This document shows positions 9,646 through 63,289 of a DNA stretch of 64,000 nucleotides, piece by piece. How positions within the stretch are numbered: position 1 is the first letter of the stretch; the number at the start of each line of letters is the position of its first letter. Source of the DNA: an uncultured bacterium (lineage in GTDB: Bacteria > Babelota > Babeliae > Babelales > Babelaceae); NCBI GenBank assembly GCA_963819815.1, contig CAWFXL010000001.1, forward strand, positions 1,216,001 to 1,280,000. Reading direction: 5' to 3'. The position numbers and the translations under genes are program-made. The notes under the pieces were generated by a model, which saw only the letters and a program-made list of their open reading frames with translations, was not told the DNA's origin and ran no database searches.

Positions 9646-9824
9646 AGGTGCTCCGTTTAGTCTGTCGATGAGTAGTATCGCGCTCTTCGTACGTTTTGTC
9701 TAATGCATGTGACAAAGCCCGGGAAAACAGAATGTTCTTTTTTTGGAAAGAAATAAGTTTTTGCTGTATACTGGACTGCATAGAAAAAATAAGATCCAAT
9801 GCTCATGATGCCAAGGATTCATCA

Positions 9825-12608: not shown

Positions 12609-12620
12609 AGGTGTAACTCC

Positions 12621-13886: not shown

Positions 13887-13895
13887 GGTAACTTG

Positions 13896-16028: not shown

Positions 16029-16190
16029 AGTGCCCTATTTTTATTTCATTTTTTATTTCTATATGCATCTATAGAGTAAAGGATTTTTGAGGATTCAGCA
16101 AAAGCCTGCCTTTAAAAAATTATAAGAAATTCTTGCATTTCGGTTCGCTGGTAAGGTAGGGTGATGAGTATGTTAAAAAAGGAAAAAACT

Positions 16191-16301
16191 ATGAAGCTTG
16201 TGTATAAGCTTATCTTCTTTGGGATTCTTATTGCGTGTGATTCAGCCCTTACGTTGCTCGTTGCTCGTTCTGGTTATTCAGGTAAACAAGAGAAAAACTA
16301 A
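16191..16301 (+). CDS. Possible 36-aa ORF or gene remnant with a signal-peptide-like start
   Basis: MKLVYKLIFFGILIACDSALTLLVARSGYSGKQEKN*, preceded by AAGGA; contains a GTTGCTC tandem repeat. Confidence 0.25.
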   Translation: MKLVYKLIFFGILIACDSALTLLVARSGYSGKQEKN

Positions 16302-16435
16302 ACTATTTCAGGAGTTTCTTGTCTGCACGAAAGCAGATAGGATAAATTTCTCTTGATATTTTCATGGCTACTGGTGTATGATTCTACTTAAGGACCAGCA
16401 GTGTGCTAGTCTATGTCTGTAGTGGAGGGTGTAGC

Positions 16436-16789
16436 ATGAAAAATATGCTTATTGTCGGTGGATTTCTTCTACTGATCTTACCTGTATATGGCGCCGATGA
16501 AGAGAAGGTGGTACCTGAAGATCATCGTTCGTCCCTGACTCTTACCGCTGATATTCCTCATAAGAGGAGCTTTTTGGAGAAATGTATCTTGGCAGGCAAA
16601 AGCTTGGGTGCTGTAGCTGCCGGTACTATTTTTGGGACTTTCTGTTATACGATACAAGATGTGGGTAATTCAAAGCCTCAGTTAGTAGATAGATTAAGCA
16701 CGTTGTGTACAGCAGGAGTTGCTTTAGTGTGTGCTGCCAAATTGGGTTCATACAGCATTGAATGTGCAAAAGAATTACTTGAAGAGTGA
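16436..16789 (+). CDS. Hypothetical exported/membrane protein
   Basis: GGAGG RBS; signal peptide MKNMLIVGGFLLLILPVYG; two internal hydrophobic segments. Confidence 0.65.
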   Translation: MKNMLIVGGFLLLILPVYGADEEKVVPEDHRSSLTLTADIPHKRSFLEKCILAGKSLGAVAAGTIFGTFCYTIQDVGNSKPQLVDRLSTLCTAGVALVCAAKLGSYSIECAKELLEE

Positions 16790-16796
16790 GTGAGAT

Positions 16797-17381
16797 ATGA
16801 AAAAGAGTATAGGATTACTTTTTTGTATCATTTCATGTTCATCCATCTGGGCTGAAGAGAAAGAAATTGTCCCAGGGTCTTTGAGAAAGACCGTCAAAAC
16901 TGGCATGGCGGCAGCTATCGGTATCTGCTTAGCTTATGAAGGGTATAAGTGGTACACAAGCCCTTCTGAAGAAGTGTCGCAAGAACAAGTATCTGATGGT
17001 CAAAACACTATTAAAGAAAAAAAGCCTATTACTCTGAATGATCGCATCGAATATTTTGGTATTGGTGCCGGGTATAGTTTGCTCACTGTTGCATCAATAC
17101 TTGCAACCTATAAGTGTGCTATGCTTTCGCTTGATAAAATGTATAGGTTTAATGCTGATCCCGTAAAGCAATTGCATAATTTCTATGATAGAATGGGGTA
17201 TCCTAAATCTGGTGATGAATGGGAAGAAGATTTAGCGGAGGAACGTGATAGAAAAAGGGGTTTTTTATTGGGAAGTCCCTTTATAGGCTCATTAGCAATT
17301 GCCATTCCCTATCTAGCCTATTATAGATATAAGTTTCCGCATGCCGCAGTTGAAAACTTAAAAAAAGCATTTCAGAGATAA
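16797..17381 (+). CDS. Hypothetical exported/membrane protein
   Basis: Signal peptide MKKSIGLLFCIISCSSIWA; three hydrophobic segments. Confidence 0.7.
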   Translation: MKKSIGLLFCIISCSSIWAEEKEIVPGSLRKTVKTGMAAAIGICLAYEGYKWYTSPSEEVSQEQVSDGQNTIKEKKPITLNDRIEYFGIGAGYSLLTVASILATYKCAMLSLDKMYRFNADPVKQLHNFYDRMGYPKSGDEWEEDLAEERDRKRGFLLGSPFIGSLAIAIPYLAYYRYKFPHAAVENLKKAFQR

Positions 17382-17391
17382 GGATCTATTC

Positions 17392-19776
17392 ATGAATTCG
17401 CTCATGATGTTGGCTGCATTGGGTGGTCAGCTTTTATCAGAAACTGATCCTCAAAGCTTGCTAGATGCTCAAGCTTTGGTAAAAGATACCCTACAGCAAC
17501 ACATTGCCGATCCTAAGCTCTTTAAGAAGGCCGCTGTTACACTTTTTAAGTTTGGACAATCTGGAAGCTTCGAGCGAGCATGTTGTGATCAACTTATTGA
17601 AGATCTTGTTAAGGCACATTATCTTGATGCTTCCTCTACGCGCGTTCCTTTTTCTGATGGCGTTTCAAGCATGCAATATGGCTATGTGATTGCCTCAGAT
17701 GCGCTGCGCATTTTTAATCTTGGTCATGGCAATTGTCACCAAGTTGGATGGTCAGGGGCTCGAGCCGTTTTTAATGCGGCGGCGCTTCAACAGCAGCTTC
17801 AATCGGGATTGTTGTCAAGTCGAGCTCTTGATGCTACTTGTCATGATATATATACAACAAACCCAGGGATTAAGAGAAGCATAGAGTATAGCATTTTCCG
17901 ATCTAAGGTTAATGCGGTATGTTCTCTGCTAAGACGGGACCAAAGCAAATTAGATGAAGCTTGGGCGCTGTTAAACAAAGATAAACCTGATACTCTTAAA
18001 GTTCTTTGGCATATGCAACCTGATTATTTCATTAGAAGGACAGGCTTAGATTTTTTAAGGTCATATCATGTTACTAATGCAATTTCATTGTTAGGAAAAG
18101 CCTCTCATGTAGCTCTCAGGGAGGTGAGTGCCGAATTAGTTAAAGTTTGTATAGGGATACTTGATGCAGCCTCTCTTGAGAAAATCGATAAGATGCTCCA
18201 CGATATGTATACCGCAATTGGTGTGCAAAGGAATGTCAGCGATCCAGATTTGAAGAGATTCTTTTTATGGAAAGATGATATCAAAAAGTATAGATCTCAG
18301 ATTATATCACTGGTGCTTACCGGTCGACCTTCCTCTGTTGGAAAACAACTAGCAGCCCTTTGTAAGGCAGATCATGTAAAAGTATGTGGTGAAAAGCTAC
18401 GCAGAGAATTGGCACATCTTGACGCGTCCCCATCTCGCTTTAAGTCGAAAATAAGTGATTGCATCCTTCTTGTACATAAAGCCGTCGCTGAAAATATAGT
18501 ACAGGCGCAAGATGCTTGCTGTACTAAAGACGATCGACTGTGTGTTATTAGTGGAACTATTAATGGTTGTGATTGCCCTTGGGCAAAGACTGCGCTTGCT
18601 CTATTTAATTCCCCCGATTGTGAAATCGATGATGTTATTGATCTATTAAAGAAATCGAGCAAGAGGGGCATTCTAGAGGCTCTCAGCATGATAAACGAAA
18701 GTGAGCATGAAAGGATTCAAATGAGTAGTGAGAAACTTAGAAAGGATCTGGAGGCTTGTAGAAGAGAGAACCTTGCGGGGATGTTCAGAGAGTTGGAACC
18801 GCTAACCACCCCCCAGGTACAAAAGGCTAAAAAGAAGTTGCGTGAAAAGCAACGTGATGGTTTACAGCTCGAAACGACTTTGCGTGAAGAGTTACAACTT
18901 TTGCAGGATATTGAACGTGATAGAATGAGTGCTGTATTTGCTAAGCTTGATTTGGAATGCCCTAAAGCAGGACAATCTTGGTATAAAGAGGAGGGGCTTT
19001 TCCTTGAGCCAGCTGAATTGCAGGAGGCTTTAGCGAAGTTTAAAGATCCAGCAATCGATGAAGCGATAAAAGTTCTTGAAGATGCTGTGACTCAGGAGGA
19101 TGCCCTCAAAGCTCTTGATGCAATACGGAGAATAAAAATAGATACCAAAGATGCGCGAGCTCTTTTAGAATCTGATCATACTAACTTTGAATCTTGGAGT
19201 GTAGCGGATGATTGTATTCTAGCAGGTGAAGCAATACAAGGCATTCGTAAGAACCTACCGGAAGAAAACAGGATAGCTAATCCTGAACATCTGCTTAGTC
19301 TTGTTAGGTTGCCAAATTTAGGCCTACCTCGAGAGAATGTTCATATTCTTGGAGATTTCAAGAACGCGGGACAACTGTTATTTGATCCTACTGATGCTAT
19401 CCTTCCACAACAAGCGGATCTGCTTGGTGAAGGTTGCGAGTCTGATGAGCAAAAAAGTGAACGTGTAGCGAATGCGATAAAAAAGCATTTTGAAGAGCAA
19501 TATCTCGATAAAGATAGCGCAGGGGCACATCACTTTATATGCAAAGTTCAGCGCCCCTTTGAACATTGGGTTCTGGTGTCCTTAGTTAAGTTTGCTGGTA
19601 AAAAACCTATATTGGTACTGCGTGAGACACAAAATTGTCCAGTTGAGTCCCATAGCCAATCATTTCTTGTCGGGTCTGATACTGTACTTGCCTTTCTGTA
19701 TAATACATTTATGCGCCAAGAGGGACAAATTCATGGAAGTTCTAGTACTAGTGGCATGAGTGCGAGCAGATTCTAG
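17392..19776 (+). CDS. Paralogue A of a split papain-like peptidase family; catalytic Cys absent
   Basis: Colinear with 19863..22196 (NPGI..IEY..FR, QPDYFIRR, AGAHHFIC, HWVLVSLVKFA); has WS-GAR where the paralogue has WSCGYR. Confidence 0.7.
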   Translation: MNSLMMLAALGGQLLSETDPQSLLDAQALVKDTLQQHIADPKLFKKAAVTLFKFGQSGSFERACCDQLIEDLVKAHYLDASSTRVPFSDGVSSMQYGYVIASDALRIFNLGHGNCHQVGWSGARAVFNAAALQQQLQSGLLSSRALDATCHDIYTTNPGIKRSIEYSIFRSKVNAVCSLLRRDQSKLDEAWALLNKDKPDTLKVLWHMQPDYFIRRTGLDFLRSYHVTNAISLLGKASHVALREVSAELVKVCIGILDAASLEKIDKMLHDMYTAIGVQRNVSDPDLKRFFLWKDDIKKYRSQIISLVLTGRPSSVGKQLAALCKADHVKVCGEKLRRELAHLDASPSRFKSKISDCILLVHKAVAENIVQAQDACCTKDDRLCVISGTINGCDCPWAKTALALFNSPDCEIDDVIDLLKKSSKRGILEALSMINESEHERIQMSSEKLRKDLEACRRENLAGMFRELEPLTTPQVQKAKKKLREKQRDGLQLETTLREELQLLQDIERDRMSAVFAKLDLECPKAGQSWYKEEGLFLEPAELQEALAKFKDPAIDEAIKVLEDAVTQEDALKALDAIRRIKIDTKDARALLESDHTNFESWSVADDCILAGEAIQGIRKNLPEENRIANPEHLLSLVRLPNLGLPRENVHILGDFKNAGQLLFDPTDAILPQQADLLGEGCESDEQKSERVANAIKKHFEEQYLDKDSAGAHHFICKVQRPFEHWVLVSLVKFAGKKPILVLRETQNCPVESHSQSFLVGSDTVLAFLYNTFMRQEGQIHGSSSTSGMSASRF

Positions 19777-19870
19777 CGATCGACATTCCCCATGTAGCCT
19801 GCCATACTAGAGATGCCGGTTGAAAACCTCAAAAAAGCGTTTCAGCGATAAGGATCTTATTTATGAATTC
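19777..19870 (+). repeat. Diverged duplicate of the 3' end of gene 16797..17381 plus RBS and start
   Basis: GTTGAAAACCTCAAAAAAGCGTTTCAGCGATAAGGATCT..ATGAATTC matches GTTGAAAACTTAAAAAAAGCATTTCAGAGATAAGGATCT..ATGAATTC at ~17349-17399. Confidence 0.85.
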
Positions 19871-22196
19871 CATGATGTTGGCTGCCTTGGGAGGGCAGCT
19901 TTTGTCCGCAACTCTTTCCCTTGAAGAGGCTCAAGTTTTCGTAAAAGATACCCTGCGACTATTTATTACTGATGAAGAAATCTCTAAGAAAGAGATTTTT
20001 AAGAAGGCATCACGTACGCTTTTTAAACTAAAACAATCTGCAAGTCTCGACCGAGAAAAGTGTTGCTTGCTTTTTGATGAGCTTATAAAGGACCACTCTT
20101 CTTGCAAATTGCTTCCTCTTCCCAGAATCATCGATAGTGCAAGATATGGAAATGCAAGTGTTTTAGCATCACAACGAGTTTTCTATCTTCAGCATGATGA
20201 TCAACAAGATGATTCTTGGTCGTGTGGATACCGGTCAATTTTGAGTGCAGCATGGCTCCAAAGTCATCTTAAACCTGGATCGGTTATGTCAAGTACAGAT
20301 TTAGGAAGTATGTGTCGTGATCTGCGTCTGCGTAACCCCGGTATTAGGGGATGTATAGAGTATATTGCTTTTCGGACTAAGATTGAGGAGGTACGCTCTC
20401 TTATAAGAGAAGACCAAAATAATGTGGAAGAAGCTTTAGCTCTGTTGAGTGAACAGGAACCGGATACTCTGAAGGTTCTTTTACAACTTCAACCTGATTA
20501 TTTTATCAGACGGGTTGTTTTGAAATTTTTGAAGGCAAATCTTAAAGATGGTCGTATTGTTGATTCGATTGCATTAATGGGAAAAGCCTCTCATAACGCT
20601 ATTAAGGCTGCGGGTACCCAGTTAGTTAAACTCGTGATGAGAAAGATTACCGTATCGAAAGTTGATGCTCTCCTCAAAGCCATACAAGATGCGCTTAAGC
20701 GCGAGAAGGATTCGGAACTTAAGCGCATTGTTTCAGGAACTCATCTAGAGGCCAGAGTAGAAATGGTTGAACTTATGCTTACTAGCCGACCGCTAAGCTT
20801 GAAGAACCAGATAGCTGCTCTTTGCGAACGAGACAGCGCTGTAAAAGAAAGATATAAACAGCTACGTCAAGAATTGGAACGAGTAAAGTCTCTTAATTTC
20901 TCTGAGTTTTCTGCTGAAATAGAGGCATGCCGTAATAAGGTAAAAGCCGTTATTGAGGCAAATACTCAGGAGATACAAGATGTCCTTTGTGCTAATGATC
21001 CTCGATTGAGGGAAATTAACCAAGTTATTGATCGTTGTGGTGACCCTAAGATACGAGCTGCTCTTGCACTTTTCCACTCTGCTGACTTTGCGCATGATGA
21101 AGTTATTGACCTTTTAAAAAGTTCTGAAATAAATGGTATTCAAGGCGCCCTCCAGCTTATCGATGAAAGTCAATGTACCTTGATTCAAAAGTATATTGCA
21201 GATGTTACAGAGCGCTTGGCTAAAAATGAGCCTGAAGGCCCCGCAAGCATAGGTGGTTCATCTTCTGATTCGGCAGTTGAAAGGGTTTTAGGGCTTCTTC
21301 AAATGGCTGTAGATCTTCTTAATGAGAAGAGGGTGGATGCTGAAAAGAATATACGGGAGGCTCGAAACGTTTGGCGGGAAGCGGTTAATGAAAGGTTTCT
21401 TAATGCTTTTTCTAGGCTTGGGTTTGGGTGTCCTAAAGCCGGTGTGCTTACTGTTCCTACCGAACAATTGCGTGGTTATGTAGAGAAGCTTAGGGATCCC
21501 CTCATAGATCGAGCTAAAAGGGCTCTTGATAATTTACAACCTGGGGATGATATGCGCAATGCTGTTGCAGCAATAAGGGCTATTAGGGATATAACCACGA
21601 AAGAAGATGCAATAGCTCTTTTACAATCTGATCATACAAAGGGAAATGCCTGGACAGTGAGTCCTGTGTATAAACTTGCTTGTCAAAGGTTAGTGGATAT
21701 TAAGAGCGCTTTACCTGAATATGAAGATGAAGCTTATGTGGACCACCTCATTAAGCTAGCCAGAATGCCAATGCTTGGGCTGCCTCAAGACCATGTCCAT
21801 ATGCTTGGGGATTTTGCTAATCGTGGTGATGTTGCTAATCGTGGTCAGCTGTTGTTTGATTTTTTAGACCCCTTTCTTTCTCGTATTTTAGATTCTCTTG
21901 TTGACGCTTGCGAGACACAAGATCAAAAAAGTGACCGTGCTGTGGATGCGATTAGAGAGCATTTTAAGGTCAAATATCTAGATACTAATACAGCAGGTGC
22001 ACATCATTTTATATGCCGCATTAATGGGAATCACTGGATTCTCGTATCTTTGGTTAAATTTGCTGATAGAAAGCCTATATTGGTAGTGCTTGATTCGTTC
22101 AATAAGCAAATTGAGTCTAATAGTGGATCCGGCAGTGTTGGTGCTGATACGGTGCTTGCCTTTCTCTATAATAAATTACTAGTCCCTCTTGGGTAA
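19863..22196 (+). CDS. Paralogue B: putative papain-fold cysteine peptidase (deubiquitinase-like) with a large helical insertion
   Basis: QQDDSWSCGYR (Cys121) ... NHWILV (His724) ... VVLDS (Asp744). Confidence 0.65.
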   Translation: MNSMMLAALGGQLLSATLSLEEAQVFVKDTLRLFITDEEISKKEIFKKASRTLFKLKQSASLDREKCCLLFDELIKDHSSCKLLPLPRIIDSARYGNASVLASQRVFYLQHDDQQDDSWSCGYRSILSAAWLQSHLKPGSVMSSTDLGSMCRDLRLRNPGIRGCIEYIAFRTKIEEVRSLIREDQNNVEEALALLSEQEPDTLKVLLQLQPDYFIRRVVLKFLKANLKDGRIVDSIALMGKASHNAIKAAGTQLVKLVMRKITVSKVDALLKAIQDALKREKDSELKRIVSGTHLEARVEMVELMLTSRPLSLKNQIAALCERDSAVKERYKQLRQELERVKSLNFSEFSAEIEACRNKVKAVIEANTQEIQDVLCANDPRLREINQVIDRCGDPKIRAALALFHSADFAHDEVIDLLKSSEINGIQGALQLIDESQCTLIQKYIADVTERLAKNEPEGPASIGGSSSDSAVERVLGLLQMAVDLLNEKRVDAEKNIREARNVWREAVNERFLNAFSRLGFGCPKAGVLTVPTEQLRGYVEKLRDPLIDRAKRALDNLQPGDDMRNAVAAIRAIRDITTKEDAIALLQSDHTKGNAWTVSPVYKLACQRLVDIKSALPEYEDEAYVDHLIKLARMPMLGLPQDHVHMLGDFANRGDVANRGQLLFDFLDPFLSRILDSLVDACETQDQKSDRAVDAIREHFKVKYLDTNTAGAHHFICRINGNHWILVSLVKFADRKPILVVLDSFNKQIESNSGSGSVGADTVLAFLYNKLLVPLG

Positions 22197-22412
22197 CTGC
22201 TCTGTGGAGCGATTGTGTGCACCGCTCTATGCTGCTTGGTTGCAGATAAGTCCGTATGGCTGCTGGTATGGCATTTTCCTCCATCTATACTAAGTGTGTA
22301 TGCACTAATTCAACCGACACGTACTCCTTTATTACGATTTATAGGACCTGTTGCTCGCAGGGAGGGGCGTGCTATACTAACGATAATTAACTCTAGTAAC
22401 CTAGGAGAAATT

Positions 22413-23738
22413 ATGAAAAAGATAGTACTATTAGTAAGTATTTTTGGTACAGCATCTATGTATGCAGCCGCACCAGTAGTGAACAATGCGGATGAGTTTA
22501 CTGAAGAATTAAAGAGACAGTTACGTAGCCAGGGGCATAGGGACTGGGAGCAAATTTTTGGTGCGGATTGGAACAAAGCATCAAAAGAAGAAAAAATTGC
22601 TATGATGGAAGGTGCTTTCGCAAATAATAGAGTGCGATGGGACCTTTTAAAGGTTACTGAATCTATCAGAATGTTGGCAAAGCCAAAGACATTAGCATCC
22701 CTTAGTTTAGCATCATTGGGTATCTTTGCAGCGTGGCATGCAACGTCCTTAGTAAAGGATGTGGCGAAACACTACCTTCTTATACCACCGCTTTGCAATC
22801 CTTCTGAGTCTTCGATTCGAGGATGGGATAGCACGGTGAAAGACTTTTTTGTGTATGAGGAAAAAAAGTTCCCTGTACGAAGTGACGTGGTACTTACAGA
22901 GCATCTTAAAGAACGCTTTGCAAAGCTGAGTCACGCGATTACGAATGCAGCCAAGAATGATGTAAACTTTAGACATTATCTTCTGTATGGTCCTCCAGGA
23001 ACGGGTAAAACCATGATGGCAAAAGCAATTGCGCAGGAAGCAGGCCTCGAGCATATGTATTTCTCTGCGGCTAACCTTGAGCAGTATAGTCTTGAAGAGG
23101 GCGTTCAACAGATTCGGCATCTTTTTGAGTATGCAAAATCCTATCCTAAAAAGCTTATGGTTATTATGGATGAAGCAGATAGTATCTTTGCTCATCGTGA
23201 TACTTGTTCTGATAAGGTCCGTACCTTCTTGAACTTAATATTAACGTATACAGGTACTGAACAGAGCAACTATGTGGTAATAGCTATTACCAATAGACCG
23301 CAGGACTTTGATGAGGCTGCGTTGAGCCGTTTTGGGGTGAAGATCAAGCTTGATGCCCCAGGGTTTGAAGAGCGTAAAATGATGTTTGCGAATTATGCCC
23401 AAAAATACTTTGTGGATTCACATACGGTTAATCGTGATAAACGTTCAATCTTCCAATGGTTATTCAGTAGAAAGCCTGCTGAAAGAATGCCATTGAAGAT
23501 CGCAGAAGACGTATTTACTGATGAAACATTCTTTGATCGACTTGCAAAAAGAAGCGAGGGGCTAGCAGGACGTGAGATCGCTGACGTTATATCGAATGTG
23601 CAGCATGATGCGTATGGAACCCCAGATCATACGGTCACCCAAGAAATGCTCTTGAATGCTCTTGAAGATAAGTTTCAAGATATAGCGACGATGAAAGACT
23701 TTACGAAGGGACGTGGCAGAGCAACAGCTGCAGCCTAA
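22413..23738 (+). CDS. AAA+ ATPase, ATAD3-like, with an N-terminal signal peptide
   Basis: AGGAG RBS, ATG 22413, MKKIVLLVSIFGTASMYA; TM segment; FRHYLLYGPPGTGKTM, MDEADSIF, TNRPQDFDEA. Confidence 0.85.
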   Translation: MKKIVLLVSIFGTASMYAAAPVVNNADEFTEELKRQLRSQGHRDWEQIFGADWNKASKEEKIAMMEGAFANNRVRWDLLKVTESIRMLAKPKTLASLSLASLGIFAAWHATSLVKDVAKHYLLIPPLCNPSESSIRGWDSTVKDFFVYEEKKFPVRSDVVLTEHLKERFAKLSHAITNAAKNDVNFRHYLLYGPPGTGKTMMAKAIAQEAGLEHMYFSAANLEQYSLEEGVQQIRHLFEYAKSYPKKLMVIMDEADSIFAHRDTCSDKVRTFLNLILTYTGTEQSNYVVIAITNRPQDFDEAALSRFGVKIKLDAPGFEERKMMFANYAQKYFVDSHTVNRDKRSIFQWLFSRKPAERMPLKIAEDVFTDETFFDRLAKRSEGLAGREIADVISNVQHDAYGTPDHTVTQEMLLNALEDKFQDIATMKDFTKGRGRATAAA

Positions 23739-41214: not shown

Positions 41215-42438
41215 ATGGCGATATACAATTATCAGGCGGTATCGCGCGAGGGGAAAAAAGTATCAGGGCAGATTGATGCTTCAACCACTCAAGGTGCGCG
41301 AGAGCTTTTGGTAAAACAGGGCTTATTTCCTACTCGTGTCATATTAGCAGCTGATGAGAGAGCTGAAGAGCCATGGTATCGTAAACTTTTTAGACGTGAA
41401 ATTAGTTTAAAAGACAAAATATTCTTTTCAAAACAACTTGCCGTTCTTTTGCGTTCGGGAATCCCTTTAGTACAAGCTCTTGAATTATTGGTGGAGCAAT
41501 CGACGGGTCCTCTTAATAGAGTTGTCATAACGTTACGTGATGGAATTAAAGAAGGTCGCTCATTAGCAGATGGGCTCGCGCGGTACCCTGCAACCTTTGA
41601 TTCGATTTATGTACAGCTTGTTCGAGCAGGTGAAGCAACGGGGAACTTAGAAACAATTTTAGATCGCTTGACCGAATTTCTTGAGCGCCGAGAAGAGCTC
41701 AGGAAAAAAGTTATTAGCGCATTGAGATATCCCCTATTTCAGTTGGGAGTCGTTGTACTCGTTGTATTGGTACTGCTGAGCTTTGTTGTGCCACAAATTG
41801 CCTCGGTATTTCAAGGTCAAAATATTGCCTTACCACTACCTACAAGGATTCTGATTGGTATGTCTAATTTTATTCTGAACCATTATATTATCTTAGGTCT
41901 GATTATTGGCACTTTGGTAGGATTATTTTTATTTTGGAAGTCGACACCAAATGGTGCCTATACGATTGACGTGTGGAAATTGAAACTGCCTTTAGTGGGC
42001 TATTTTTCTCGTACGAATGCTATCGTGCAGTTTACTCGCACGCTTGGGATGCTTGTTGAGGGAGGAGTTAATTTGGCTGAAGCTCTTAACATTGTCGTAA
42101 AAATAGTTGATAATAAGGTGCTCAGCAATGCACTTGAAAAGGCACGTGAGAATATTATCAAGCAAGGAAAGATCGCCCAGTATTTGAATGAGACGCGTTT
42201 GTTTCCACCTGTGGCGATACATCTTATTAATACAGGAGAGCAGAGTGGTGAACTTGGGCCTATGCTTAATACTGTAGCTCGGTATTATGAAGATGACTTA
42301 CGTGAGCGCTCTGATGCATTATCAGAGCTCCTTGGCCCTGCAATGCTTATAGTAATGTTTGTAGTAGTAGGATTTGTGATAGCATCGGTTATGTTACCGA
42401 TTCAGCAAATGCAAAGTGTGGCAGAAAATCTGCGCTAA
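41215..42438 (+). CDS. gspF: Type II secretion / type IV pilus platform protein GspF/PilC
   Basis: QLAVLLRSGIPL, AGEATGNLE, ALRYP, GEQSGEL. Confidence 0.93.
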   Translation: MAIYNYQAVSREGKKVSGQIDASTTQGARELLVKQGLFPTRVILAADERAEEPWYRKLFRREISLKDKIFFSKQLAVLLRSGIPLVQALELLVEQSTGPLNRVVITLRDGIKEGRSLADGLARYPATFDSIYVQLVRAGEATGNLETILDRLTEFLERREELRKKVISALRYPLFQLGVVVLVVLVLLSFVVPQIASVFQGQNIALPLPTRILIGMSNFILNHYIILGLIIGTLVGLFLFWKSTPNGAYTIDVWKLKLPLVGYFSRTNAIVQFTRTLGMLVEGGVNLAEALNIVVKIVDNKVLSNALEKARENIIKQGKIAQYLNETRLFPPVAIHLINTGEQSGELGPMLNTVARYYEDDLRERSDALSELLGPAMLIVMFVVVGFVIASVMLPIQQMQSVAENLR

Positions 42439-42456
42439 TTAACGAAAGGAATTTGT

Positions 42457-42897
42457 ATGACTCATTCATCCTCTCCTATGAGAAAGCGAAAGCTCTCAAA
42501 TCGTTCAGGATTCACCATCATTGAGATTATGATTGTGTTTATGATCATAGGTATTATTGCAGCGGGTGCCTTCGGTGGTATGCGCTATTTGCAACGCGTA
42601 AAAGAATCTACCACCCGTACAAGACTTGCTGCGGTTGATACTATGATTGAACAGTACCATACTACGGTAGGAGCCTATCCTGCGGAACTCCAAGAGCTTG
42701 TAGATGGCCCTTCTCAGCCCCAATTGCAAAAACGTTGGGGTGAACCAATTGCAACACAAGATGAGCTCAAGGATGCTTGGCAGCAAGAATTTGTATATGC
42801 AGCGGCGCCAAAAGGATCGAGACCTCCTTATGAGTTATACTCAATAGGTTCAAAAGGCGATGCTCATATTTACTCGCCTCGTTCTCAGGAAGCTTAG
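42457..42897 (+). CDS. gspG: Major pseudopilin GspG-like
   Basis: Prepilin site G|FTIIEI; YP..LQELV; DAWQQEFVY; YELYSIG. Confidence 0.85.
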   Translation: MTHSSSPMRKRKLSNRSGFTIIEIMIVFMIIGIIAAGAFGGMRYLQRVKESTTRTRLAAVDTMIEQYHTTVGAYPAELQELVDGPSQPQLQKRWGEPIATQDELKDAWQQEFVYAAAPKGSRPPYELYSIGSKGDAHIYSPRSQEA

Positions 42898-42904
42898 AGC
42901 TCCT

Positions 42905-43375
42905 ATGCAGCGCAGTGGGTTTACGATTATAGAGATCATGGTTGTTATTATCCTTATCGGGATAATAACAACCATTGGCTTACCTCGGTTTTTGCATTCC
43001 CGTGTTCCGATTGCGCAAAGTTTTATGCATCAAGTTAATCTCCTGGTGACCGACGCCGTTGCTTACGCTCAAAAAGAGGGAGAGCCATGCCGTATTTTTT
43101 TTAATCTGGGTGCACAAGAAGTAGAACTTCAAACAGCTCAGGGCAAGCGAGTAGGGGGTTCCCTTGAGATACCTTCTGTGCTCCAAGTTACCGATGTAGT
43201 TATTAATGGGGAAAGTCAATTCCAAGCCGGTAGTGGTAAAACATTTTATTTCTTAGTCAATCCAGAGGGAATGAGTCAGGAAGTACACCTTACTCTTGAA
43301 GAAAAAAAAGGTTCAACGACGAGGTCCTATACGTTTTATTTGAACCCTTTTTTGACGAGCTTTAGAGTGGCTTGA
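42905..43375 (+). CDS. Minor pseudopilin GspH-like
   Basis: G|FTIIEIMVV. Confidence 0.8.
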   Translation: MQRSGFTIIEIMVVIILIGIITTIGLPRFLHSRVPIAQSFMHQVNLLVTDAVAYAQKEGEPCRIFFNLGAQEVELQTAQGKRVGGSLEIPSVLQVTDVVINGESQFQAGSGKTFYFLVNPEGMSQEVHLTLEEKKGSTTRSYTFYLNPFLTSFRVA

Positions 43376-55933: not shown

Positions 55934-56410
55934 ATGAAAAAGTCTTTTAAAAAATTAATGCGTAATCAAGTTCAGGATACCATTGATCAATTTGGGTCAC
56001 TTGCTTTACAGCCTGTTCCAAAGGTAGGCTGGCTACGTATTGTGAGAAAGGCTCTAGGTTTAACTACGCTGCAACTGGCGAAGAGGGTAGGGTCAAGCCA
56101 AGCAAATATCACAAAGGCAGAAAAAAATGAATCGGAAGGTAGTATTAGTTTAAAGACGCTAGCACGTATTGCCGAGGCTATGAATTGTAAGTTTGTATAT
56201 TGCATTGTGCCTATTAAGCCTATAGAAACTATATTAGAAGAGCGGGCAAAGCGCATTGCTAAAAAACGTATTCAAGTTATAAATCATTCGATGAGCCTGG
56301 AATTGCAAGGTCTTACACCTGAGCAGTTGAAAGCTCAAGAGGAAAATCTGGTGGACGAGTTGCTTGCGGGGAATCTTAAAAAACTATGGGAAGATGATTA
56401 TGAGGTTTAA
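55934..56410 (+). CDS. Mobile mystery protein A (XRE-family HTH)
   Basis: GWLRIVRKALGLT..QLAKR, ISLKTL..AEAMNCKFVY, HSMSLELQ, KLWE; followed by a Fic gene. Confidence 0.9.
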   Translation: MKKSFKKLMRNQVQDTIDQFGSLALQPVPKVGWLRIVRKALGLTTLQLAKRVGSSQANITKAEKNESEGSISLKTLARIAEAMNCKFVYCIVPIKPIETILEERAKRIAKKRIQVINHSMSLELQGLTPEQLKAQEENLVDELLAGNLKKLWEDDYEV

Positions 56411-56897
56411 GAATTACAACGGAGCAACTCCACTTGATCCTGTTGAGTTACATGAGCTCATTCCAGAGCACCTTGTTACGCAAGAGGAGCTAAATGCCTG
56501 GGAAGAAAAAAATATTCTAAAGGCGAGGCAATGGGCTGGAAGATTTCGAATATCAGAAAGGAATCTTGGTATAAATTGGCACGCAATTGCCGCTGAAGTA
56601 AAAAAGCTCTGTGATGACACACATTTTCAGCTAGCCCACGCTACTTTTAATGATGATGAGGTAGCTGTAAGGTTTCACCACCGGTTAGTTTGGATTCATC
56701 CATTTCCCAATGGTAACGGTCGGCATGCGCGTTTAATGGCAGACCTGCTTATTGTGCAGCTCGGACATCTACCATTTAGCTGGGGATTGTATCAGAAACT
56801 GTCAAGTCCTACTCCAATTAGAAAGCATTATATTGAGGCATTGCAGTTAGCTGATCGAGGTGACTTTTCGAAAATACTTGCTTTTGCCCGATCTTAG
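56400..56897 (+). CDS. Mobile mystery protein B (Fic domain), apparently internally shortened
   Basis: GATPLD, ELNAWEEKNI, FHHRLVWIHPFPNGNGRHARL. Confidence 0.88.
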   Translation: MRFKNYNGATPLDPVELHELIPEHLVTQEELNAWEEKNILKARQWAGRFRISERNLGINWHAIAAEVKKLCDDTHFQLAHATFNDDEVAVRFHHRLVWIHPFPNGNGRHARLMADLLIVQLGHLPFSWGLYQKLSSPTPIRKHYIEALQLADRGDFSKILAFARS

Positions 56898-56963: not shown

Positions 56964-57428
56964 TTAGCGTTGCAATCTTCCGGGCAGCTTTTTCAAAATA
57001 GAATCTTCTCGGGCTTGCATAACAGCGTATTGTTCATCGGTTTCATGGTCATAGCCAAGTAAGTGACAAATCCCATGAATAGTAAGAATCATCAGACGAT
57101 GTTCATAGGTAACTCCCAAGTTCTTTGCTGAATGCACGATATATTCTGGGGAAAGGATAAGATCGCCGAGATTTTTTTCATCCTCGTGAGTAGTCGCTAT
57201 TTTCGTGCCGGGGGTGGTGTGTGGGTGATAGGCGAATGATAATATATCAGTAGGACCTTTTTTATATCGGTACGTTTCATTATACCGTTGTATTGTTCTA
57301 TTCGTGGTTATGAGAATTCCAATGTCAAAATCTTGATAGGTAAGTATCGTGAGTATCTCTGTGATAAGCTCAGTAAGCCACTGTTCATCAAGAGGAACTT
57401 TTCGTTGGCGATTGATAAGTGTAATCAT
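56964..57428 (-). CDS. ybeY: rRNA maturation RNase YbeY
   Basis: PTDILSF, LGDL, HGICHLLGYDH. Confidence 0.95.
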   Translation of the reverse strand: MITLINRQRKVPLDEQWLTELITEILTILTYQDFDIGILITTNRTIQRYNETYRYKKGPTDILSFAYHPHTTPGTKIATTHEDEKNLGDLILSPEYIVHSAKNLGVTYEHRLMILTIHGICHLLGYDHETDEQYAVMQAREDSILKKLPGRLQR

Positions 57429-59882
57429 ATGCTCAAGGTAGCTTTCCAGGTACCATTCTCTTCTGAAAGCTGAGGTGCTAGAGTATCAGGTACAAACGTT
57501 ATGCTCGCAGCTTTGCTAATACCTTTAATAAGGGCACCATTCTTTTGTAGCTGCTGTCGTAATGCAGCATCTTGGCATCCGATTGTAAGCGTCGTTAAAT
57601 CTGTTTTTAAGGACAGCTGCTGTTCAGATTTGAGCTTTCTAACCATCGCTATAACGTCAATAATATGACCCATGATCTGAGCTGACTCAGGATAGTCAAA
57701 TGCTTTCTGATACGCAGCAAACTTGGTCATATGAAGAGAAGGGCTTGCAACTTCTTTTTGGTAGAGCTCTCCGTAGAGTGCTTCGGTAACATGCGGTACG
57801 AAAGGAGCATAAAGCTGCAAGATACGTAATCCTATATGAGAGAGTGTCCAACGGGTTGCTTGCACTTCCTCTTGGGGATAGGTATCAGGATTGAGTAGTT
57901 GATCCTTACTAATTTCTACGAAGTTATCACAAAAATCATGCCAGAAAAACTGTTCAATAGTTGCAAGTGCTAAGCTAAATTCATATTCCTCAAAGTACTG
58001 CTCATACTTTCTTTGGCAGGTACTCATACTGTTGAGTAACCATTCATTCGAGACACCAAGACTTTTGGGTGCTGGAGCCTTCAGAGAAACGCCTTGGATA
58101 TGAGGTTCAATAAATCTAAAAGCATTCCAGAGCTTAACGAGGAGTTTGAGTCCGATCTTTATCTGATTTTCTGAAAATGAGATATCATGGCCAAGCCCGC
58201 CTGATGCAGTCCAATAGCGTAGAGCATCTGCAGGATAGTGCTTTAAGAGCTGTTCGGGAGTTAAGGGGGTATTCCCTTGTGATTTTGAGATTTTCTCTTT
58301 TTGCGGAGATAGTACATGTCCTGATATAACAATAGTTTTCCAGGGGATCGACTCATTGTGAAGCCATGATTTAACGATAGTATCGAATGCCCAGGTTCGA
58401 ATAATATCATGAGCTTGTGGGCGCATAGTCATGGGAATAAAGCTTTGTGCCGATTCTTCAAAGATGCTGGGCGTTAAAGGCATACGCAAGCTTGCACAAA
58501 TGTAGGGTGTTAGGCTTGACGTATTCCAAGTATCCATAACATCTGTATCGGGCGCAAATGAGGTTCCTCCACACGAACAGGTACCCTGGAATGGAATTTC
58601 CTGGGGATCTATGGGCAGTTGGTCTTCTTGTGCAAGGACTACTTCTTTACACTGGGTACAATGCCATACGGGAAATGCTATCCCATAAAATCTTTGGCGC
58701 GAGAGGCACCAATCCCAGCTGATGTTTTCTACCCAATTTACGTATCGTGCTTTCATGAATGATGGGTACCACTCAACTTTTTCTCCTACCTGAATAAATG
58801 TTTCTTTGTGGGGCAATAGGGCGAGAAACCATTGTGGTAATACCAGATATTCGATCTCTTTTTTGCAGCGTTCATGAACATTGACCGTTTGCTTATGTGG
58901 CTGTTGTCTTCTAAGTGAGCCTTCTTTTTCAAGAAGTTCAAGAATAGCAGCTCGTGCTGCGGGAACGCGCATTCCTTCAAGAGGACCAGCTGCAGCACTA
59001 AGTTTACCATCAAGGCCGATGATCGGCTTATATTTAAAGTGATGTGTCTTAAACCAGATCACATCAGTCTTATCACCAAAAGTTGAGCACATTACGAGCC
59101 CCGTTCCCTTTTCAGGATTTACCAAAGGGTCAGCTATAAGGGGAACTTCGAACTTATAGTAAGGAACCGTCGCCTTCCTTCCTGCAAGATGCTGAAAGCG
59201 TGGATCGTCTGGATGATATAAAACGGCAGTTACGCGCAGCAAGTAATTCGGGTCTCGTCGTAGCAATGATAAGCTCATCACCATCTGCCGTGAAAACAAG
59301 GTCATTGAATGTTGTCTCTTTTTCAAGATCATCCAGTTCTGCTTGTGCAACCGTCGTGCGACAGGTGGTGCAATAGAGTGCCGGCTCATCCTTTCGATAG
59401 ATATGGCCTTTTTTGTAGAGCTTGATAAATGAAAGCTGTGAAATATAGCGCGACCGCTCATCAATTGTTGAGTAGCATGCTTTCCAGTCTACTGAGAGTC
59501 CGATGGAGCGCCATAAGGTTTCAAACTGTTTTTCTACCTCGGTTGTTTCCTTAAGACATAAAGCAATAAACTCTGAGCGCTTCAAGGAATATGCTTGTAC
59601 ATCAAGTTTTTTTTCAACGTATTTCTCGGTGGGAAGACCATTGTCGTCAAAACCAAAAGGATAGAAAACGCTATTGCCCTTCATCCGAGCATACCGTGCG
59701 ATTATATCGGTCTGTGTATAGGAAAACAGATGTCCAATATGTAAAGAACCAGAGACTGTAGGTGGGGGAGTATCGATCGAATATAAAGGCCCTGGATTAT
59801 TTTCAGTACTATATACCTTATGGGCTTCCCATAACTTTTGTGCTTCGGGTTCTGCTTTCAAATGATCGTAATTTTTTTCCAT
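57425..59882 (-). CDS. valS: Valine-tRNA ligase (short archaeal/Rickettsia type); one +1 frameshift at ~59234
   Basis: IDTPPPTVSGSLHIGH, DWCLSRQR, RPQAHDIIRTW, KISKS; removing one base gives 818 aa. Confidence 0.93.
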
Positions 59883-60052: not shown

Positions 60053-60646
60053 ATGAATGCTAAACTATGTGCCTTGCTTTTAACTGTAGCAGCTGTTTCT
60101 TCGACATATTCGATGAATGACGTAAAGGCAATACCTGTTCCACCAACAAGCACCCATCCAAGCGAAAAATCAAATTTTATACTTGAGGATGAAGTAAAAA
60201 AGTTATTCTACCAACCTGCGGCCCTGCGAGAGTTGGCCGAGCCAAATAAGAGAGAGCTCTATAGAGCATGTCTGCAGCAAATTATTGAGAACCCTCAAAT
60301 GGTACATCAAGATATGCCCGACGCAATCAAGAAATTTCCTCTTTATGTGGCCATTCTTCACCTAGCTCAAGAACACGTATCCTGGGCTATGATCAGGGCT
60401 TTTGGCCTTGAAAGAGAGAAGAATGCTTTGGTACAAAAAGAAGCGGATCGTAATGTAGAGCGCAGTGTTGTATCGGAGCTAGAAAATGCTTACCAGGCCA
60501 AGTTCGACAAAAAATTGGCGGACTTTCCTAAAGATGCAGAGAATGAGCTCATTATTAGAGCTAGCACTGAAGCTGCTAAGGTGATGCTCAACTTTCTTGT
60601 GTCTATGCCACCGCTGACTTTATTTACAATTCGTGGATCTCATTGA
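60053..60646 (+). CDS. Secreted hypothetical protein, tandem paralogue 1
   Basis: Signal peptide; 197 aa; highly similar to 60823..61416. Confidence 0.8.
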   Translation: MNAKLCALLLTVAAVSSTYSMNDVKAIPVPPTSTHPSEKSNFILEDEVKKLFYQPAALRELAEPNKRELYRACLQQIIENPQMVHQDMPDAIKKFPLYVAILHLAQEHVSWAMIRAFGLEREKNALVQKEADRNVERSVVSELENAYQAKFDKKLADFPKDAENELIIRASTEAAKVMLNFLVSMPPLTLFTIRGSH

Positions 60647-60822: not shown

Positions 60823-61416
60823 ATGAATACTAACATATGCGCATTGTTTTTAAGTATAGCAGTTGCTTCTTCGACATACTCGATGAATGACTTGAAAACG
60901 ATGCCTGTTCCACCAACGAGCACTCATCCAGCTGAACAATCCAATTTTACACTGGAGAACGAAGTAAGACAATTATTCTGCCAACATGCGGCGCTTGAAG
61001 AGTTGGCGAAGCCAAAGATGAGAGAGCTTTATAAAGCATGTCTGCAGCAAATTATCGAGAACCCTGCAATGGTTCATCAAGATATGCCCGACGCAATCAA
61101 GAAGTTTCCTCTTTATGTCGCCATTCTTCGCCTAGCTCAAGAACATGTAAGCTGGGCTATGATCAGGGCTTTTGGTCTTGAAAGAGAGAAGAATGAGTTG
61201 AGGCAAAAAGAAGCGGATCCTAGTGTAGAACGCAGTGTTGTAAGGGAACTAGAAAATGCTTACCAGGCCAAGTTCTCACAAAAATTGGAAGAGTTTCCTG
61301 AAGATGCAAAGAGTGAACTCGCTATTAGAGCTAGTACTGAAGCTGCGAAGAAGATGCTCGACTTTCTTGTGTCTATGCCTCCTCTAACGTTGGTACGAGT
61401 TCCTAGCTCTAACTAA
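60823..61416 (+). CDS. Secreted hypothetical protein, tandem paralogue 2
   Basis: Same length with long identical blocks (ACLQQIIENP, MVHQDMPDAIKKFPLYVAIL, AQEHVSWAMIRAFGLEREKN). Confidence 0.8.
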   Translation: MNTNICALFLSIAVASSTYSMNDLKTMPVPPTSTHPAEQSNFTLENEVRQLFCQHAALEELAKPKMRELYKACLQQIIENPAMVHQDMPDAIKKFPLYVAILRLAQEHVSWAMIRAFGLEREKNELRQKEADPSVERSVVRELENAYQAKFSQKLEEFPEDAKSELAIRASTEAAKKMLDFLVSMPPLTLVRVPSSN

Positions 61417-61687: not shown

Positions 61688-63217
61688 TCAGCATGGTTGC
61701 CCGGAGAAAAATTCAGTATACCCTGGATCTTGGTCACTCGGGATACGTATACTTGCGATAACTTGTGCTCTATCAGATAGTCCAGGCTCTGGAGTTCCCG
61801 ACCGTTTAAGTGAAACTAAAGGCGAATCTGAGGTAAGCTGAGAGCTTCTTTGGATTTTCCCAAGACTCATATGGGGCGGTTCTTCAGATGGATAGGTTCT
61901 TTTTGTTCCTTTAGGAAGGATAGCAATTACCGAATTATAGACCTCATCTATGAAACTATCATAGCCAGCTGGCTCTTCATACACAACAGTGACATATTTG
62001 CCGAAGATTTTAAGCTTATCCCATCTAAAAGGATGATCTTGAGAAAGGCTTGCTAATTTCGCCGTAACCATATCCAGACCGTTATGCTCAATCGCTTTTA
62101 AAGCAGTGCAAGCTTTCTGTTCATAACTTCGCTGATCACCACTTCCAAGAGGTATAGATACATAGGCAAGCGAAATATGCATATCCTTTTGGTCAACTAC
62201 CGAATCTAATGTTTCAGGTATCGATTGTGATATGGTATTCTGCAGAAGGGTATCGGCTAAGGCGCGTTGGGCTGCTCGATATGATGCTTTAGGCACGAGC
62301 TTAAGCACTACATGACCATAGACTATTCCGCCCTGATCCTTCAGAAACTGTATAATTTTTGGATGATCCTTCTTTTGTACCTTAGCTTGAATAGCTGAGG
62401 CTAGTGGTGTTATCATTTTTCGATCAGTTTTATTAATATCTGCTCCATTTCTTACGAGTAAATCAACCATCTCATAAAAACCGTCGCGCGCTGCAAATGA
62501 TAAAGGGGTGTTGCCATGAACATCAGCCTTATCGACATCGCAGCCTTTCTTGATGAGTAGTCTCATTAGGTAAGGGTAATCTGTACGTACTGCTTTGAGT
62601 AAGAGGCTGCTTCCAAACGTATCAAGTGCTCCAATCAACTCAGGGTGAGCAGCAAGAAGGGTTGCCACTGAACCAACATCTTGCCCCTCAATTGCTTTTA
62701 TAATGTTATTATACGGGGTCTTAAGCTGACCAAGATCTTTATACTCGATGAAGCGTATTTGCTGCGCACTGCTTGAGCTGCTCGTTGCTGATTGAGCCAC
62801 AGGAGCTTTTACTGGTGCTTGCCCTAACAGGAGGTTCACCATCTCCTCATTATTGCTACCTAACGCAAGAGACAAGGGTGTTTCATCCTTACTATTTTCC
62901 TGATCCGGATCTGCACCAAGCCCGATTAAAGTTTGAGCAACTTTTCTAATGTTCTTACTGACTGCATAGTGAAGAAGCGTATTATTACCAGAATCCATAA
63001 GACGAATCAGCTGTTTATGTGCAGCCAAGATCGGCTCTACAGCACTATTCTTCTGCGCAGGCGTAAGAGAGGCGTCATTCAATATTTCTCTAATCTTATT
63101 AAAACTATCTTTTGTAGGCCTTTGCGCAGACGACCAGGCTTGCATCGCCAGACTTTGCCCCACAAAGCTCCCCGTTGCTAAAACTGTAACAAGCAGGACC
63201 TTCAATTTCCATTTCAT
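61688..63217 (-). CDS. Secreted ankyrin-repeat protein with a C-terminal 2H phosphoesterase-like domain
   Basis: Signal peptide; NTLLHYAV, ETPLSLA, GNTPLSFAA, ITPLASA; HISL (H347) and HMSL (H449). Confidence 0.8.
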   Translation of the reverse strand: MKWKLKVLLVTVLATGSFVGQSLAMQAWSSAQRPTKDSFNKIREILNDASLTPAQKNSAVEPILAAHKQLIRLMDSGNNTLLHYAVSKNIRKVAQTLIGLGADPDQENSKDETPLSLALGSNNEEMVNLLLGQAPVKAPVAQSATSSSSSAQQIRFIEYKDLGQLKTPYNNIIKAIEGQDVGSVATLLAAHPELIGALDTFGSSLLLKAVRTDYPYLMRLLIKKGCDVDKADVHGNTPLSFAARDGFYEMVDLLVRNGADINKTDRKMITPLASAIQAKVQKKDHPKIIQFLKDQGGIVYGHVVLKLVPKASYRAAQRALADTLLQNTISQSIPETLDSVVDQKDMHISLAYVSIPLGSGDQRSYEQKACTALKAIEHNGLDMVTAKLASLSQDHPFRWDKLKIFGKYVTVVYEEPAGYDSFIDEVYNSVIAILPKGTKRTYPSEEPPHMSLGKIQRSSQLTSDSPLVSLKRSGTPEPGLSDRAQVIASIRIPSDQDPGYTEFFSGQPC

Positions 63218-63259
63218 ACAACAACTCCTCTATATTTAATTATGTCAGCCATTATAATT

Positions 63260-63289
63260 ATTATATAAAAATATGTTTCTATTTGTCAA
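63260..63289 (-). promoter_or_regulatory. Consensus sigma70 promoter of the ankyrin gene
   Basis: TTGACA-N18-TATAAT. Confidence 0.65.

Follow-up and report, generated by a model that had tools for sequence, protein, structure and literature searches.

2H phosphodiesterases antagonise host defence in RNA viruses, poxviruses and phages. The superfamily is defined by two H-x-(S/T)-x motifs (PMC5283653, PMC4201822), and its LigT subfamily (ThpR, TT0787, PH0099, drCPDase) consists of RNA 2',3'-cyclic phosphodiesterases. ThpR is a stand-alone cytosolic enzyme of ~176 amino acids (aa), in which H43 and H125 are proposed to serve as general acid and general base, respectively; H43, H125 and R130 are reported as essential by mutagenesis, and F48 stacks the base (PMC4201822). 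The viral and mammalian 2',5'-phosphodiesterases (2',5'-PEs), which include NS2 of mouse hepatitis virus (MHV), NS4b of the Middle East respiratory syndrome (MERS) virus, rotavirus VP3 and AKAP7, use 2'-5' oligoadenylate (2-5A) as substrate and are described as a defined 2H subfamily antagonising RNase L, with which an intracellular parasite counters its host (PMC8406329). Acb1 and the poxvirus 2H phosphodiesterase acting on cyclic GMP-AMP (cGAMP) are smaller, single-domain, cytosolic viral enzymes. Here we describe an open reading frame (ORF) from an uncultured bacterium of the order Babelales, located in a stretch of 64,000 nucleotides (the window; GenBank assembly GCA_963819815.1, contig CAWFXL010000001.1, positions 1,216,001 to 1,280,000), in which a domain with the predicted fold of these enzymes follows a signal peptide and two blocks of ankyrin repeats.

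The features of the gene are given below in window positions, where pLDDT is the predicted local distance difference test score of AlphaFold2 (AF2) models.

61688..63217, minus strand: whole ORF (P0001), 509 aa plus stop, ATG start
63146..63217, minus strand: predicted Sec-type signal peptide, residues 1-24 (MKWKLK, hydrophobic core, SLA and then M), called by rule
62828..63112, minus strand: ankyrin block 1, residues ~36-130 (Pfam; helical repeat pairs at pLDDT 84-95)
62732..62827, minus strand: flexible linker rich in Ser, Ala, Pro and Gln, residues ~131-162 (sequence; pLDDT <50 at 133-151)
62336..62731, minus strand: ankyrin block 2, residues ~163-294 (Pfam; pLDDT 90-96)
61691..62335, minus strand: predicted 2H phosphoesterase domain, residues 295-509, 215 aa (AF2, Foldseek, VIA-align, hhalign)
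62162..62179, minus strand: proximal motif H347-I-S-L-A-Y352, aligned to H43-x-T-x-x-F48 of ThpR
61856..61873, minus strand: distal motif H449-M-S-L-G-K454, aligned to H125-x-T-x-x-R130 of ThpR

Compared with the LigT subfamily the predicted fold is alike (Z 11.3-12.3 in structural superposition), and both motifs are in register with those of ThpR, with Y standing for F48 and K for R130 at position +5. The differences from ThpR lie in the replacement of the catalytic Arg by Lys, in secretion, in the ankyrin fusion and in size, the domain having ~215 aa and containing a 33-residue helix (domain residues 68-100) that sets it apart; moreover, its identity to LigT-type chains is only 10-12% and its sequence lies below every Pfam threshold for such proteins. 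The 2',5'-PEs have the 2H fold that is predicted for the domain (Z 10.5-11.1, rmsd 2.9) but no detectable sequence kinship beyond the motifs, and they carry neither ankyrin fusion nor signal peptide. Acb1 and the poxvirus enzyme also have this fold (Z 10.2 and 7.7).

With respect to export, the nearest parallel is found in the signal-peptide ankyrin proteins of Dependentiae. In the cultured member Chromulinavorax destructans 44% of proteins are reported to carry signal peptides, and its 98 ankyrin proteins, 78% of them with signal peptides, are considered to be effectors that are secreted and modulate the host (PMC6561590). The protein described here is built for export in the same way and is likewise presumed to modulate the host, but with a catalytic domain attached, whereas the accessible part of the Chromulinavorax account leaves the function of the ankyrin proteins unknown and names no enzymatic domain in them (PMC6561590). 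No secreted or ankyrin-fused bacterial 2H effector was found described in the full-text literature searched, in which subscription journals are largely outside the coverage. Our data describe a 2H family that is new and lacks annotation, with an architecture that is also new and a deployment that is probably so.

Ankyrin blocks, linker and N-terminus

When the whole protein was searched against Pfam, ankyrin families only were found (Ank_2 with E 3.8e-23, Ank with E 1.2e-22), and the Ank_2 score, 82.3 bits, exceeds the Pfam threshold of 27.3. The ankyrin stretches extend over residues ~80-137 and ~179-293, the best Ank_2 stretch being 179-265. In the full-length AF2 model, made from an 11-row alignment (mean pLDDT 84.9, predicted template modelling score (pTM) 0.66), values of pLDDT below 50 are confined to the signal peptide region, the linker at 133-151 and a loop of the 2H domain at 329-331. 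The low-confidence residues 133-151 fall in the linker segment LGQAPVKAPVAQSATSSSSSAQQ, of which the Ser-rich part reads ..QSATSSSSSAQQ... The description of two ankyrin blocks joined by a Ser-rich linker, given in a first-pass annotation made from the DNA letters, is therefore borne out by Pfam and the model. Block 2 adjoins the 2H domain directly, without a linker, and contains columns that are invariant in 11 members of the family; in all 11 full-length members the last repeat passes directly into the first strand of the 2H domain, with its conserved GG-x-VYAK.

The N-terminus, MKWKLKVLLVTVLATGSFVGQSLA followed by MQ, shows basic residues, then a hydrophobic core, and S-L-A at positions -3 to -1. 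The core has a Kyte-Doolittle mean of 2.17 over 12 residues starting at residue 7, and the model has low pLDDT at residues 1-4 and 15-32. By rule and hydrophobicity this is the layout of a Sec signal cleaved by signal peptidase I (SPase I), with n-region, h-region and small residues at -3 and -1, and a junction of the A-M type is seen again in the N-termini of relatives. The signal peptide that had been read from the sequence earlier is in line with this rule, and a basic-then-hydrophobic N-terminus is present in 11/11 full-length members.

Predicted fold of the C-terminal domain

The domain was modelled by AF2 from a 15-row alignment consisting of the window domain, 13 relatives and a paralogue from the same genome, which gave a pLDDT of 89.9 and a pTM of 0.85; in the full-length model the alpha+beta domain is confident from residue 299. 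The model has the two-lobed alpha+beta 2H fold with each motif on a strand, H53 and H155 of the domain (H347 and H449 of the protein) being placed at the starts of strands 54-64 and 155-161. Superposition on ThpR, together with the in-register alignment described below, suggests that the two histidines would be close to each other in space.

Structural comparison gave a consistent picture. Every match listed by Foldseek against the PDB at E <= 1e-3 is a named 2H enzyme, with LigT (5ldm) as the best (E 2.4e-6). In VIA-align the highest scores were obtained for drCPDase (Z 12.3; 167 residues, rmsd 3.8), TT0787 (12.0), ThpR (4qak; 11.8) and LigT (11.5), followed by MHV ns2 (11.1; 146/148 residues, rmsd 2.9), Usb1 (11.0), AKAP18 (10.5-10.9), rotavirus VP3 (10.5), Acb1 (10.2) and the penguinpox cGAMP phosphodiesterase (7.7). 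The superpositions with Z 10-12.3 extend over model residues ~4-212. The matches of a Foldseek search of BFVD were 2H proteins as well, from giant viruses, phages and nidoviruses. The domain is thus predicted with high confidence to fold as a 2H phosphoesterase, which is the outcome that the first-pass annotation had expected from a Foldseek comparison of the C-terminal domain with this superfamily.

The HxS/T motif occurs exactly twice in the whole protein, as HISL at H347 and HMSL at H449. The separation of 102 residues agrees with the distance of about 100 aa noted at first reading for MHISL and PHMSL. However, two or more such motifs arise by chance in ~43% of 20,000 shuffles of the protein, and the motif count by itself is therefore not significant; since shuffled proteins so often contain them, two motifs alone weigh little, and their significance rests on conservation and on the fold.

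Conservation and relationship to LigT and ThpR

Among 1.84 billion cluster representatives, scanned exhaustively with HMMER, 17 proteins including the query reached E <= 1e-3. Three of these (P0015-P0017; 2070-4051 aa, matching in 3-6 short stretches with E 4e-4 to 6e-4) were excluded as probably spurious, and the family counts given here refer to the window protein and 13 relatives (P0002-P0014). The relatives have only 20-34% identity to the window domain. Despite this divergence H347 is kept in 13/13 members that cover the position (the window protein and 12 relatives) and H449 in 14/14, so that the histidine conservation which the earlier annotation had made a test of its proposal is found throughout. 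The proximal S/T and the Y at +5 of the first motif are likewise present in 13/13, and the motif spacing is 101-105 residues among family members. The 11 full-length members, the window protein among them, all combine the N-terminus described above with Pfam ankyrin and 2H; the other three sequences are fragments of 161, 185 and 218 aa. For two different members, P0003 and P0008, the record gives a contig of 12,086 bases in each case, and they may be neighbouring paralogues on one contig.

A profile of the family was compared by hhalign with a LigT profile of 13 rows, built from Escherichia coli ThpR and canonical LigT genes of the same lineage. The two align with 83.4% probability (E 8.5e-6) over 92 columns that cover both motifs, pairing H347..Y352 with H43..F48 and H449..K454 with H125..R130 in register, while the family profile against the single ThpR sequence reached a probability of only 21.8%. 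The extended proximal motif HxTxxF of ThpR has its counterpart in HxS/TxxY, found in 13/13 members with Y aligned to F48. For the extended distal motif HxTxxR the residue at +5 is K in eight, R in two, E in two, Q in one and H in one (n=14 members). Taken with the best structural matches, these extended motifs favour the LigT/ThpR branch of RNA 2',3'-cyclic phosphodiesterases over NS2 or Acb1, although the Z-scores are nearly equal. At the level of Pfam, PF13563 (2_5_RNA_ligase2) is matched below threshold in 6/15 members (best E 0.0062), Acb1 (PF23474) weakly in 2/15 (E >= 0.045) and AKAP7_NLS weakly in 1/15.

Distribution of the family

The protein belongs to a family of exported 2H proteins that is small, very rare and lineage-specific. 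For ten members looked up (the window protein and nine relatives), each cluster at 90% identity contains one or two sequences, and the only source name found among family members is 'ankyrin repeat protein'. A search for related loci with a 4-row domain alignment gave one locus, on a contig of an uncultured-bacterium metagenome-assembled genome (MAG). Within the order, five of the eight genomes that carry the domain belong to the genus of the window genome (the latter counted), and the family is present in 4/9 other genomes of that genus. Ankyrin-fused forms occur in three genomes of the order, where the frames measure 513, 690 and 378 aa. Short proteins (211-340 aa) with a hydrophobic N-terminus and no ankyrin are encoded at seven additional loci, distributed over six genomes, and two HxS/T motifs are present in 7/7 of them, 91-115 residues apart.

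The window genome itself has such a paralogue on the minus strand (G000:C1:328270-329022; L002 1243..1995), of 250 aa with a signal peptide, a 2H domain without ankyrin, and the motifs WHLSV and PHISV. It adjoins a gene for an ABC-transporter ATPase, and a 489-aa ankyrin frame begins within ~1 kb. A near-identical copy of this paralogue is present in a second genome (G001).

A separate canonical cytosolic LigT of 178 aa, with the motifs HCTLLF and HCTIAR, is encoded elsewhere in the genome on the minus strand (G000:C1:1414498-1415031; L008 1441..1977), immediately downstream of a gene for a 458-aa RtcB RNA ligase. The two look like an RNA-repair pair. The cytosolic LigT was found in 9/9 other genomes of the genus, compared with 4/9 for the secreted family; the secreted 2H protein is therefore an accessory addition and not the housekeeping enzyme.

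Proposed function and alternative explanations

We propose that the protein is a secreted, host-directed, ThpR-like cyclic phosphodiesterase; for this reading, in which export beyond the periplasm, the target in the host and the substrate are inferred, we put the chances at about even. The signal peptide would take the protein across the inner membrane, and a type II secretion or pilus-type apparatus, or vesicles, would release it from the obligate intracellular Dependentiae bacterium into a protist host, where the ankyrin repeats would dock it onto a host protein or complex. The gspF and gspG-like genes of the window and the secretin and type II ATPase matches of the genome count in favour of export. 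H347 as general acid and H449 as general base would then hydrolyse a 2',3'-cyclic phosphate in a metal-independent way, leaving a 2'-phosphate, with Y352 stacking the base and K454 contacting the phosphate as helpers. The substrate may be an RNA end with a cyclic phosphate (RNA>p) or a free 2',3'-cyclic nucleoside monophosphate (2',3'-cNMP), and the consequence would be a loss of 2',3'-cNMP signals or of host RNA>p ends, the latter serving RtcB-type ligation in tRNA and in XBP1/HAC1 splicing. The 2H enzyme CNP is reported to hydrolyse RNA>p to 2'-phosphate, reducing ligation by RtcB (review PMC10630183). Since this conversion takes away the substrate of an RtcB-type ligase, the effector could damp host tRNA splicing or stress-response splicing.

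The wider reading, according to which this ankyrin-guided 2H cyclic phosphodiesterase is the first 2H-class bacterial effector, delivered into the protist host and altering RNA or nucleotide ends there, is tentative, and we would sooner doubt it than build on it. It could include destruction of 2',3'-cNMP or of 2'-5'-linked immune messengers of the protist; in any of its forms it would be a bacterial counterpart of the strategy of viral NS2, VP3 and Acb1. The first-pass annotation had gone in this direction with an exported, ankyrin-targeted phosphodiesterase as candidate eraser of host nucleotide signals. Its view of the architecture agrees with the export signal, the ankyrin fusion in 11/11 full-length members and the predicted 2H fold, whereas top matches and extended motifs lean to the LigT/ThpR side rather than to NS2 and Acb1, with Z-scores that are nearly equal.

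Several observations weigh against the proposed function. As a single sequence, residues 295-509 gave only a chance-level match in Pfam and only E >= 0.76 at best against PDB sequences, and a word-indexed protein search with them returned the query alone. The trimmed family profile against PDB sequences found a chance-level beta-2-microglobulin (E 0.24), the untrimmed one being dominated by its ankyrin columns. The gathering thresholds of PF13563 and PF02834 are missed, and the window protein has no match to either. The fold is a prediction from a shallow alignment and not a solved structure, and the Z of 12.3 for the best LigT-type match is close to a tie with the 10.2-11.1 of the viral and mammalian enzymes and Acb1, which does not separate the 2H subfamilies. 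In the distal motif the Ser is kept in 13/14 members, one having HIAI (HxA in place of HxS), and the residue at +5 is basic (K/R) in 10/14, E/Q/H in 4/14, and K rather than R in the window protein. The signal peptide was called by rule and by eye, and a Sec signal assures passage to the periplasm only, so that delivery to the host cytosol is a further assumption. Finally, a profile scan of the order found the domain in only 8/261 genomes (4/189 of high quality), so that the gene is accessory and its distribution patchy.

The fold that the domain has in common with MHV ns2, VP3, Acb1 and the penguinpox cGAMP phosphodiesterase would also fit a role in which it cleaves host 2'-5' oligoadenylates, cGAMP-type or other cyclic oligonucleotides and so blunts a protist defence of the oligoadenylate synthetase (OAS) or CD-NTase type. 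The weak Pfam matches to Acb1 and AKAP7 are in line with such a role, secretion and ankyrin fusion suit a part in conflict, and the antagonism of RNase L by 2',5'-PEs (PMC8406329) can be counted in its favour as well. Language-model neighbours of the domain are mostly viral 2H clusters, at a score of 0.88 that is below the 0.9 level and gives a lead only. We nevertheless regard this role as rather unlikely, as the closest matches, by structure and by profile, and the motifs resembling HxTxxF and HxTxxR are those of the ThpR/LigT branch; the HxTxxF motif is absent from AKAP18 according to PMC4201822, and a tblastn search among 50,697 phage records gave no match.

A Sec signal by itself predicts a periplasmic protein, and the enzyme might instead act in the periplasm or host vacuole on 2',3'-cNMPs that secreted RNases set free, thereby feeding the nucleotide uptake of a bacterium unable to synthesise its own nucleotides, with the ankyrin part merely anchoring or protecting it. 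A genome reliant on imported nucleotides, with three matches to the ATP/ADP translocase (TLC), would be suited to this, although TLC carriers import nucleoside triphosphates and diphosphates and not the 2'- or 3'-nucleoside monophosphates (2'-/3'-NMPs) that such an enzyme would yield. The short signal-peptide 2H members without ankyrin (seven loci in six genomes) and the secreted nucleases reported for Chromulinavorax (PMC6561590) are consistent with scavenging; on the other hand, ankyrin repeats abutting the 2H domain in 11/11 full-length members argue for a protein target, and a distribution that is patchy even within the genus is unlike that of a core nutritional function. We consider scavenging decidedly unlikely. 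It is very improbable, in our estimate, that the 2H domain only binds a nucleotide such as AMP and that the protein is an adaptor without catalysis. The central domain of AKAP18, whose crystal structure contains AMP, is structurally close to it (Z 10.5-10.9), and the loss of the distal Ser in one member and of the basic +5 residue in four would agree with such a scaffold, but both histidines and the proximal S/T are invariant at 20-34% identity, as would be expected if the enzyme is active.

If RNA>p ends of the host or nucleotide messengers are what the enzyme acts on, the theme of 2H counter-defence would extend to bacterial parasites of protists, with a hint of defences based on nucleotides or RNA ends in their protist hosts. 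Dependentiae are reported to devote a large share of a small genome to signal-peptide ankyrin proteins of unknown function (PMC6561590). A recognisable and readily assayed predicted catalytic domain in one of them therefore offers a direct handle on what the ankyrin effectors of this group do.

Expression signals, genome context and neighbouring genes

Two candidate expression signals precede the ORF:

63260..63289, minus strand: sigma-70-type promoter, TTGACA-18 nt-TATAAT, agreeing at 12/12 consensus positions
63225..63230, minus strand: Shine-Dalgarno sequence GAGGAG, 7 nt before the ATG, by direct reading of the sequence

The promoter is the sole perfect match in the region and lies 43 nt upstream of the ATG; the region has four promoter-like sites in all, compared with a mean of 4.5 in shuffles. 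On the minus strand, no terminator-like site was found after the stop codon. With a credible promoter and ribosome-binding site, the gene looks expressed.

The genome comprises 1.64 Mb in 2 contigs. Besides the three TLC matches it has 167 matches to Ank_2, four to secretin and two to the ATPase of the type II secretion system (T2SS), features that are consistent with Dependentiae. Signature primers for Chlamydiales 16S had no match within 2 mismatches, whereas universal 16S primers did match, which is weak evidence only; RadA was uninformative as to taxonomy. Within the window a cluster resembling T2SS or type IV pili is present on the plus strand (41215-43375), with GspF (E 5.5e-107), a T2SS protein G pseudopilin and a second protein with an N-methyl motif.

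Convergent with the ankyrin-2H gene are two tandem paralogues of 197 aa on the plus strand (60053-60646 and 60823-61416), 76% identical to each other, with signal-peptide-like N-termini, no Pfam family and no other copy in the genome. Neither this pair nor the gene upstream of the ankyrin-2H gene was found beside homologues of the latter in the 11 loci compared. Further away, on the minus strand at 57425-59882, is a gene resembling valyl-tRNA synthetase (class I tRNA-synt_1 and anticodon-binding domain) that is divided between two frames which overlap, ORF 59154..59882 matching profile positions 3-184 and ORF 57425..59464 matching 184-414 and the anticodon domain; this is a frameshift in an essential gene, either real or an assembly error. 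On the plus strand at 55934-56897 a helix-turn-helix protein of the Cro/C1 type (HTH_3) overlaps a Fic/DOC-domain protein, and the two could form a toxin-antitoxin-like pair or an AMPylating effector pair. The region 9696-23738 contains large ORFs of 970, 421, 710, 794 and 777 aa that have no NCBIfam match at E <= 1e-10, and these are followed by a 507-aa AAA+ ATPase.

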